From the NCBI RefSeq assembly GCF_003334815.1, contig NZ_QOWO01000123.1: a stretch of 676 bases of DNA. One strand, written 5' to 3'. The position numbers were made by a program, and so were the translations under genes. The stretch's first letter is position 1. Every line of letters starts with the position of its first letter. Below the pieces are notes generated by a model, which was not told the DNA's origin, searched no databases, and saw only the letters and a program-made list of their open reading frames with translations. This stretch comes from Escherichia coli (GTDB lineage: Bacteria; Pseudomonadota; Gammaproteobacteria; Enterobacterales; Enterobacteriaceae). This document shows, piece after piece, positions 1-676 of the stretch.

Positions 1-23
1 GGTAATGCTGCCAACTTACTGAT
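1..23 (+). repeat. IS1 left terminal inverted repeat (IRL)
   Basis: The sequence ggtaatgctgccaacttactgat matches the recalled canonical IS1 IRL (GGTGATGCTGCCAACTTACTGAT) at 22 of 23 positions (A for G at position 4). The partner IRR is outside the window, so the inverted repeat cannot be confirmed internally. Confidence 0.85.
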
Positions 24-35
24 TTAGTGTATGAT
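9..35 (+). promoter_or_regulatory. Putative insA promoter overlapping IRL (approximate)
   Basis: A -10-like hexamer tatgat at 30..35 and a weak -35-like tgccaa at 9..14 with a ~15 bp spacer. The IS1 insA promoter is known to lie partly within IRL; the exact hexamers here are my reading and are uncertain. Confidence 0.3.
12..24 (-). promoter_or_regulatory. Putative IHF binding site within IRL
   Basis: The reverse complement of 12..24 is aatcagtaagttg, which matches the IHF consensus WATCAANNNNTTR with one mismatch. IHF binding at IS1 ends is established knowledge; this placement is by motif inspection only. Confidence 0.4.
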
Positions 36-55: not shown

Positions 56-331
56 GTGGCTTCCATTTCCATCAGATGTCCTTCCTGCTCCGCTACTGAA
101 GGCGTGGTGCGTAACGGCAAAAGCACTGCCGGACATCAGCGCTATCTCTGCTCTCATTGCCGTAAAACATGGCAACTACAGTTCACTTACACCGCCTCTC
201 AGCCCGGTAAGCACCAGAAAATCATTGATATGGCCATGAATGGCGTCGGATGTCGCGCCAGTGCACGCATTATGGGCGTTGGCCTCAACACGGTTTTACG
301 TCACTTAAAAAACTCAGGCCGCAGTCGGTAA
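56..331 (+). CDS. insA: InsA, IS1 transposition inhibitor / DNA-binding protein (91 aa, GTG start)
   Basis: ORF track 56..331 gives [91 protein letters not shown]. It is the same length as canonical IS1 InsA and close to it as recalled, with a CxxC...CxxC N-terminal zinc-finger motif (C8, C11, C32, C35) and a C-terminal helix-turn-helix-like region. The start is GTG (position 56 = gtg), as in canonical IS1. Stop is TAA at 329..331. Confidence 0.93.
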
Positions 332-676
332 CCTCGCGCATACAACCGGGCAGTGATGTGATTGTCTGCGCTGAAATGGACGAACAGTGGGGCTACGTCG
401 GTGCTAAATCACGTCAGCGCTGGCTGTTTTACGCGTATGACAGGATACGGAGGACGGTTGTGGCGCACGTCTTCGGTGAACGCACTCTGGCCACACTGGA
501 GCGTCTTCTGAGCCTGCTGTCGGCCTTTGAGGTCGTGGTATGGATGACGGATGGCTGGCCGCTGTATGAATCACGCCTGAAGGGAAAGCTGCACGTTATC
601 AGCAAGCGTTACACTCAGCGCATTGAGCGACATAATCTGAATCTGAGACAACATCTGGCAAGGCTGGGACGGAAGT
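250..676 (+). CDS. insB: InsB / C-terminal part of the InsAB' transposase (3'-truncated by window edge)
   Basis: Manual translation of frame 1 from ATG at 250: [142 protein letters not shown]..., with no stop before position 676. It closely resembles recalled IS1 InsB (…[46 protein letters not shown]…[49 protein letters not shown]…). It is absent from the ORF track presumably because it runs off the window. The functional product is the InsAB' fusion (56..~312 joined to 310..end) made by -1 frameshifting. Confidence 0.88.
307..313 (+). other. Programmed -1 ribosomal frameshift slippery site (A6C) for InsAB' transposase
   Basis: aaaaaac at 307..313 lies in the insA frame as tta-aaa-aac, 16 nt before the insA stop. 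The -1 frame (window frame 1) is open from 229 to the window end. This matches the established IS1 A6C frameshift mechanism. Confidence 0.85.

Follow-up and report, generated by a model that had tools for sequence, protein, structure and literature searches.

The window, by which is meant the whole 676-nt stretch of DNA that was analysed, comprises the left part (bases 1-676) of an IS1 element that is 768 bp long and of IS1F type, and carries the left terminal inverted repeat (IRL), a complete insA gene, a frameshift motif and most of the insB frame. At its left margin, a sigma-70-like hexamer pair (CTGCCA and TATGAT with a 16-nt spacer; 8..35, plus strand), which overlaps the IRL, was picked up by a consensus scan that returned 3 sites in the window versus 0.4 expected from shuffles. 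The position of this pair fits a weak IS1 promoter repressed by InsA, and such a promoter, overlapping the IRL, would drive insA. The IS1 promoter lies partly within the IRL, and InsA binds the inverted repeats and represses transcription (PMC12428005). No match up to E = 1 was returned when the window was searched against Rfam.

The insA gene (56..331, plus strand), delimited using the ORF list, Pfam, and NF050000, is complete, starts with GTG, and encodes 91 aa. Two CxxC pairs are present in this ORF, PF03811 and PF12759 (Zn_ribbon_InsA, HTH_Tnp_IS1) are recorded on the insA-equivalent gene, and the NF050000 zinc-binding domain scored 41 bits against a cut-off of 28, which together give the zinc ribbon and HTH of the IS1 family. 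By analogy with the established behaviour of IS1, the product would act as a repressor and an IR-binding protein. The slippery motif AAAAAAC (A6C; 307..313, plus strand), located from the sequence and the PGAP annotation, would allow a -1 frameshift from InsA into the insB frame. In IS1, a rare -1 frameshift at A6C gives InsAB', which catalyses transposition with a short target duplication (PMC12428005). The insB frame itself (250..675, plus strand), defined by frame-1 translation and PF03400, lies at -1 relative to insA, contains the DDE catalytic region, and is cut by the window end; frame 1 stays open from 250 onwards, and 142 of the 167 insB codons are in the window. An A6C motif with an insB frame at -1 is the arrangement of the IS1 family. 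PF03400 (DDE_Tnp_IS1) is recorded on the insB-equivalent gene, and the modelled 207-aa part of InsAB' that lies in the window matched NF033558 (transpos_IS1, an equivalog) at 244.4 bits (cut-off 100) across profile positions 1-199 of 199, which identifies an IS1-type DDE transposase. A modelled InsAB' fusion of 232 aa ends at the same stop as the two-piece 'programmed frameshift' CDS of PGAP. Full-length copies of the window isoform are predicted from these reading frames to encode the 232-aa InsAB' intact, and the isoform is presumably active.

The IRL (1..23, plus strand; GGTAATGCTGCCAACTTACTGAT) was delimited using its match to the opposite repeat, a target-site duplication (TSD), and the start of K-12 IS1F. 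Its sequence matches the reverse complement of the right inverted repeat (IRR), taken from full-length copies that are identical over 1-676, at 20 of 23 bases; GGTAATG opens both repeats and the likeness falls off past base 23, as in the terminal repeats of the IS1 family (~23 bp, GGT(A/G)ATG start). In the finished genome of E. coli 2013C-4538 (L002), dgcZ is split by a copy identical over 1-676, and the 8-bp direct repeat GTTTATCG adjoins both base 1 and base 768 of that copy; a match of 8 bp would arise there by chance with a probability of about 1.5e-5. Six identical copies, which represent four distinct contexts, have flanks that part exactly at base 1, and the annotated mobile element IS1F of K-12 begins at the equivalent of window base 1. 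Because flank divergence, TSD, and the K-12 IS1F start agree, window base 1 is confirmed as the true outer end of the IRL. The element measures 768 bp from IRL to IRR in copies L001-L004 and L025-L027, all of which are identical over 1-676, and the bases absent from the window (677-768) hold the IRR, the last 25 codons of InsAB', and the stop codon at 751-753. The preliminary description had placed the start of the IRL at base 1, the cut before the IRR, and the element end at about 768, and had taken a TSD of 8-9 bp as typical of IS1; all of this is borne out, the last point by the 8-bp TSD in dgcZ and by a 9-bp TSD around another IS1 copy (L024).

The isoform was assigned by comparison with K-12 IS1F, IS1A, and IS1D. 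The full-length element is identical to K-12 IS1F at 764 of 768 positions (99.5%; 674 of 676 inside the window), and to IS1A and IS1D at 699 (91.0%, 69 differences) and 696 (90.6%) of 768, respectively, which places it far nearer K-12 IS1F than either of the other two. The four sites that differ between K-12 IS1F and the window isoform are 156, 542, 677, and 703. When the window was run by megablast against 5,426 complete E. coli genomes, 4,971 of them gave IS1-like matches, including many chromosomal copies that are 100% identical across the 676 bases and carry the PGAP annotation 'IS1 family transposase, programmed frameshift'. Thousands of matches were also found in a plasmid collection, chiefly from Klebsiella and Escherichia and also from Enterobacter, Salmonella, Citrobacter, and Shigella. 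Nearly all E. coli have IS1 as a native element (PMC7373316). The window is a common, ordinary E. coli IS1, and the biology of the element is already known.

Among species-representative genomes, the exact 200-mer at window positions 477-676 matched only Pantoea piersonii. The copy in P. piersonii IIIF1SW-P2 (L028:3696-4463, NZ_RARB01000025.1) is without IS bases 1-83 and is interrupted by a scaffold 'N' with a 62-nt overlap (IS 120-181) duplicated on either side of it, an assembly artefact inside IS1. After base 119 it differs from the E. coli isoform at three positions, a near-identity that suggests recent transfer or contamination.

Identical full copies were found in at least four contexts, and three of the four sampled were without a TSD. 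The context with an 8-bp TSD is dgcZ; those without are the point where fragments of a CPBP endopeptidase and an alpha/beta hydrolase are joined (L001, L026, and L027; seen in O145 and O157 strains among others), and, in L004 and L025, the junction between fragments of an HD-domain gene and hchA and the mdtM-brnT interval. The TSD-less junctions (L001:2987-3782, L004:2987-3782, and L025:1187-1982) suggest IS1-mediated adjacent deletion or recombination between copies. Matching repeats of 8-9 bp are therefore not always found, even when flanks are available. L004 and L021 have a common right flank and different left flanks. The CPBP/IS1/hydrolase locus is also present in a 260-kb record labelled as a non-mobilizable plasmid (L026; pB39_V, NZ_OQ420472.1, 226669-229744), where the neighbouring proteins WP_001167434.1, WP_001301456.1, and WP_001231525.1 match O145 and O157 chromosomes; the record may represent chromosomal DNA that was submitted as a plasmid, or the locus may be an island common to replicons. 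Two further arrangements were seen in E. coli 203740. A full IS1 of the isoform with T at 677 lies within an IS1A-type fragment consisting of the IRL plus about 81 bp (L022:420-1268), and this nesting interrupts the mqsR toxin gene. Downstream of mutS, a mosaic IS1 (L023:501-1268) carries IS1A-type alleles over 1-265 and IS1F-type alleles over the remainder, which indicates recombination or gene conversion between isoforms.

Contigs that end at the same base as the window were sought by exact-sequence look-up using the truncated 142-aa insB product (250-675) as query. This product, named 'transposase, partial [Escherichia coli]' at NCBI and recorded there on 70 contigs, was found in 137 index blocks, and in 128 of these every contig is under 2 kb long. 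One of the contigs, CYCM01000141.1 (L017, GCA_001286185.1), stands alone at 676 bp and begins and ends exactly where the window does; it is recorded for at least 20 samples, and its only difference from the window is the substitution A156C. Only this 156C allele was retrieved as a public 676-bp contig, and the 156A allele of the window was not. In GCA_002407365.1, five contigs enter IS1 from unique left flanks that differ from contig to contig, and all five stop at 676; two metagenome contigs assembled by MEGAHIT (k = 111 and k = 141) also end at IS1 base 676. In total, the contigs ending at this base (L009-L015 and L017) number at least seven besides L017 and come from three assemblies other than that of L017, so that the endpoint recurs as would be looked for in a collapsed-repeat contig. 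A further contig (L016) ends at 677, not 676, and there is therefore more than one fork near the site. Contigs with this endpoint at 676 show C at position 210 as a second common allele. An in-branch endpoint in an assembly graph would shift with k. An in-branch as the cause of the 676 end was rejected, as the k = 111 and k = 141 contigs stop at the same base; the constancy of the endpoint across different k points instead to an out-branch at 677.

Base 677 is C in the window isoform and T in K-12 IS1F. A perfect 55-mer carrying 677T is present in 2,511 complete replicons and the corresponding 677C 55-mer in 4,390; since the C query matched 5,953 records and these include both sets, the two alleles must occur together in at least 948 complete replicons. 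A further isoform, annotated as intact and bearing the 9-bp TSD mentioned above, likewise has T at 677. The two margins of the window are thus both points of divergence between copies, since left flanks part at base 1 and, on the right, C and T at 677 are co-resident in those records. In each of E. coli E2865 and 300709, a fecI-adjacent IS1F with 677T (alleles 156C, 313A, 542A, 677T, and 703T) is accompanied by a 677C copy. The co-resident copies in these two genomes also differ at 156, 313, 471 or 501, and 542, and no real genome was shown to have co-resident copies that are identical over 1-676 and first differ at 677. A plain two-copy SNP fork without graph simplification was rejected, as the 677T copies of E2865 and 300709 differ also at 156, 313, and 542; given these additional differences, the model works only with bubble popping or with greedy extension.

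A toy de Bruijn graph was built from three real copies of the window isoform with their flanks and the fecI-adjacent IS1F of E2865, using single-strand k-mers, uniform coverage, and a bubble rule defined by the authors, and is idealised in these respects. In the unsimplified graph, a unitig ends at 676 at every tested k up to 133, and the strict unitigs obtained without simplification are much shorter (543-676). Bubble popping closes and removes the differences at 156, 313, and 542, and the 677/703 branch fails to re-merge because only 65 nt of common sequence are left ahead of the diverging right flanks. Once bubbles are popped, the collapsed unitig is exactly 1-676 at k = 67, 77, 99, 127, and 133; it is 1-768 at the three tested k up to 63, and 1-541 at k = 141. 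Within the terms of this idealised model, both ends of the window were shown to be reproduced in silico.

From the allele counts, the contig ends, and the simulation, we infer that the last window base (676..676, no strand assigned), which is the last shared base before the C/T site at 677, is an assembly-graph fork placed one base before a common polymorphism. The window is most probably a collapsed-repeat contig produced by short-read assembly. The source would be an E. coli or Shigella genome, or a metagenome, with two or more IS1F-type copies; the contig would start at base 1 since the left flanks of the copies diverge there, and would stop at 676 since the copies differ at 677, where the window isoform has C and both the resident fecI-adjacent IS1F and another active isoform have T. 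Base 677 lies 92 nt from the IS end, with 65 nt following the linked site 703, and should at usual k give a fork that persists, as opposed to a bubble that can be popped. The assembly graph of the source is predicted to have two or more incoming links at base 1 and exactly two outgoing branches past 676, one of which would begin CACTGTCG and run to the IRR before splitting into several flanks, while the other would begin TACTGTCG and lead to the right flank of the fecI-adjacent IS1F (TCCTCCCGAACTCAA) or into another copy with a 677 variant. How the window arose, and which 677 variant forked it, are what we infer from these data. The preliminary description had offered either an assembly break at a repeated IS copy or deliberate extraction of the element. 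The former is supported by the recurrent contigs that end at 676, the 677 polymorphism, and the simulation; the latter found no support and would be expected to have taken all 768 bases. That description was right that the insertion context is invisible; it understated the matter, since a collapsed contig stands for several copies and has no single context.

A deliberate cut from a longer sequence, or a cut made by an arbitrary windowing rule, for example in a partial-IS1 entry, is an unlikely origin for the window. A start exactly at the IS terminus would be a curator's natural choice, but a curated extraction should include all 768 bp with the IRR, and an arbitrary cut has about a 0.5% chance (4/768) of ending just before one of the four sites that distinguish K-12 IS1F from the window isoform. 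In addition, whole-genome shotgun assemblies contain contigs that share both ends of the window.

Somewhat less probable again is a biological 3' end, whereby an IS1 copy was physically truncated after 676 by another mobile element and the contig stopped at this second repeat. Such a structure exists in the chromosome of E. coli AR_0369 (L008), in which base 676 of a fecI-adjacent IS1F-type copy directly abuts an IS3-family element at its left end (TGATCTTACCCAGC); the junction creates a TGA stop, yields the same 142-aa product, and would likewise fork a graph at 677, with a branch predicted to start GATCTTACCCAGC after 676. Of 5,426 complete E. coli genomes (a collection without Shigella chromosomes), however, only one had a contiguous junction between IS1 base 676 and an IS3-family element, and the other rows with at least 80% coverage were two-piece matches about 263 bp apart, each representing a complete IS1F beside an IS3-type end. 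The AR_0369 copy also differs from the window at 142, 156, 170, 573, 597, and 636. At 1 in 5,426 genomes, nested-IS truncation was rejected as the general cause of the 676 end and kept as a minor rival. The IS3-family element itself (L008:3380-3620, CP027140.1) has the left end TGATCTTACCCAGCAATAGTGG and an OrfA that begins MTKNTRFSPEVRQRA; we take it to resemble IS629/IS1203. An inverted IS1A-type copy lies about 1.6 kb beyond the IS3-family end.

It is more doubtful still that 676/677 of IS1F-type elements is a recurrent biological breakpoint, such as a preferred nesting target for IS3-family elements or a recombination junction between isoforms; if it were, many of the contigs that end at 676 would be real truncated or mosaic copies and not products of a SNP fork. 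That the terminal match is coincidental, with base 1 inside a longer conserved element or otherwise not an IS end, is scarcely credible, as no support for it was found and it is refuted by the flank divergence, the adjoining TSD, and the K-12 IS1F annotation.

Under the preferred reading, that of a collapsed-repeat contig, the window is a consensus of several copies and so not a locus with a hidden insertion context. Its length of 676 bp, explained by a SNP 92 bp from the IS end, can help to spot and filter such contigs. IS1 is among the best-studied mobile elements; the window is a textbook IS1 and, most probably, a routine short-read assembly artefact, both already known and of little biological weight.

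Of the known systems, the IS1F of K-12 MG1655 (4518472-4519239, beside fecI/ykiE) shares with the window isoform its length frame, GGTAATG termini, insA/insB layout, and A6C motif. It differs in carrying G542A, which changes a Trp codon of insB to a stop and makes the gene an annotated pseudogene; A156C, which gives InsA H34P where the window isoform keeps 156A; and C677T and C703T, neither of which the window isoform has. K-12 IS1F sits adjacent to fec and is reported to transpose only at extremely low frequency (PMC12428005), whereas the window isoform is represented by several 100% identical copies in different contexts, one of them with a fresh-looking TSD. The window isoform is an intact relative of the defective K-12 IS1F and probably the active form that gave rise to recent insertions, among them the one in dgcZ. 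The A156C substitution falls in codon 34 of insA and changes the second CxxC pair from CSHC to CSPC; besides K-12 IS1F, it was found in the 676-bp contig CYCM01000141.1 and in one GCA_002407365.1 copy (L011). K-12 IS1F keeps A6C at the slippery motif, whereas in the fecI-adjacent IS1F of E2865 and 300709 (L018 and L020) C313A turns A6C into A7; these copies also carry the stop at 542 and are defective regardless.

IS1A and IS1E, the 'consensus' K-12 IS1 of the IS1R type, belong to the same family as the window element and agree with it in the length of 768 bp, the gene order, the frameshift motif, and 23-bp IRs, but differ by about 9% nucleotide divergence and by an IR that starts GGTGATG and not GGTAATG. 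Multi-copy IS complicate short-read assembly (PMC4558774). The collapsed-repeat contigs that such elements give usually stand out by a read depth that is a multiple of single-copy depth. They are like the window in starting at a repeat boundary, ending at a graph fork, and recurring in many assemblies; unlike those delimited by the repeat boundaries, the window contig is shorter than its repeat by virtue of an inter-copy SNP near the 3' end.
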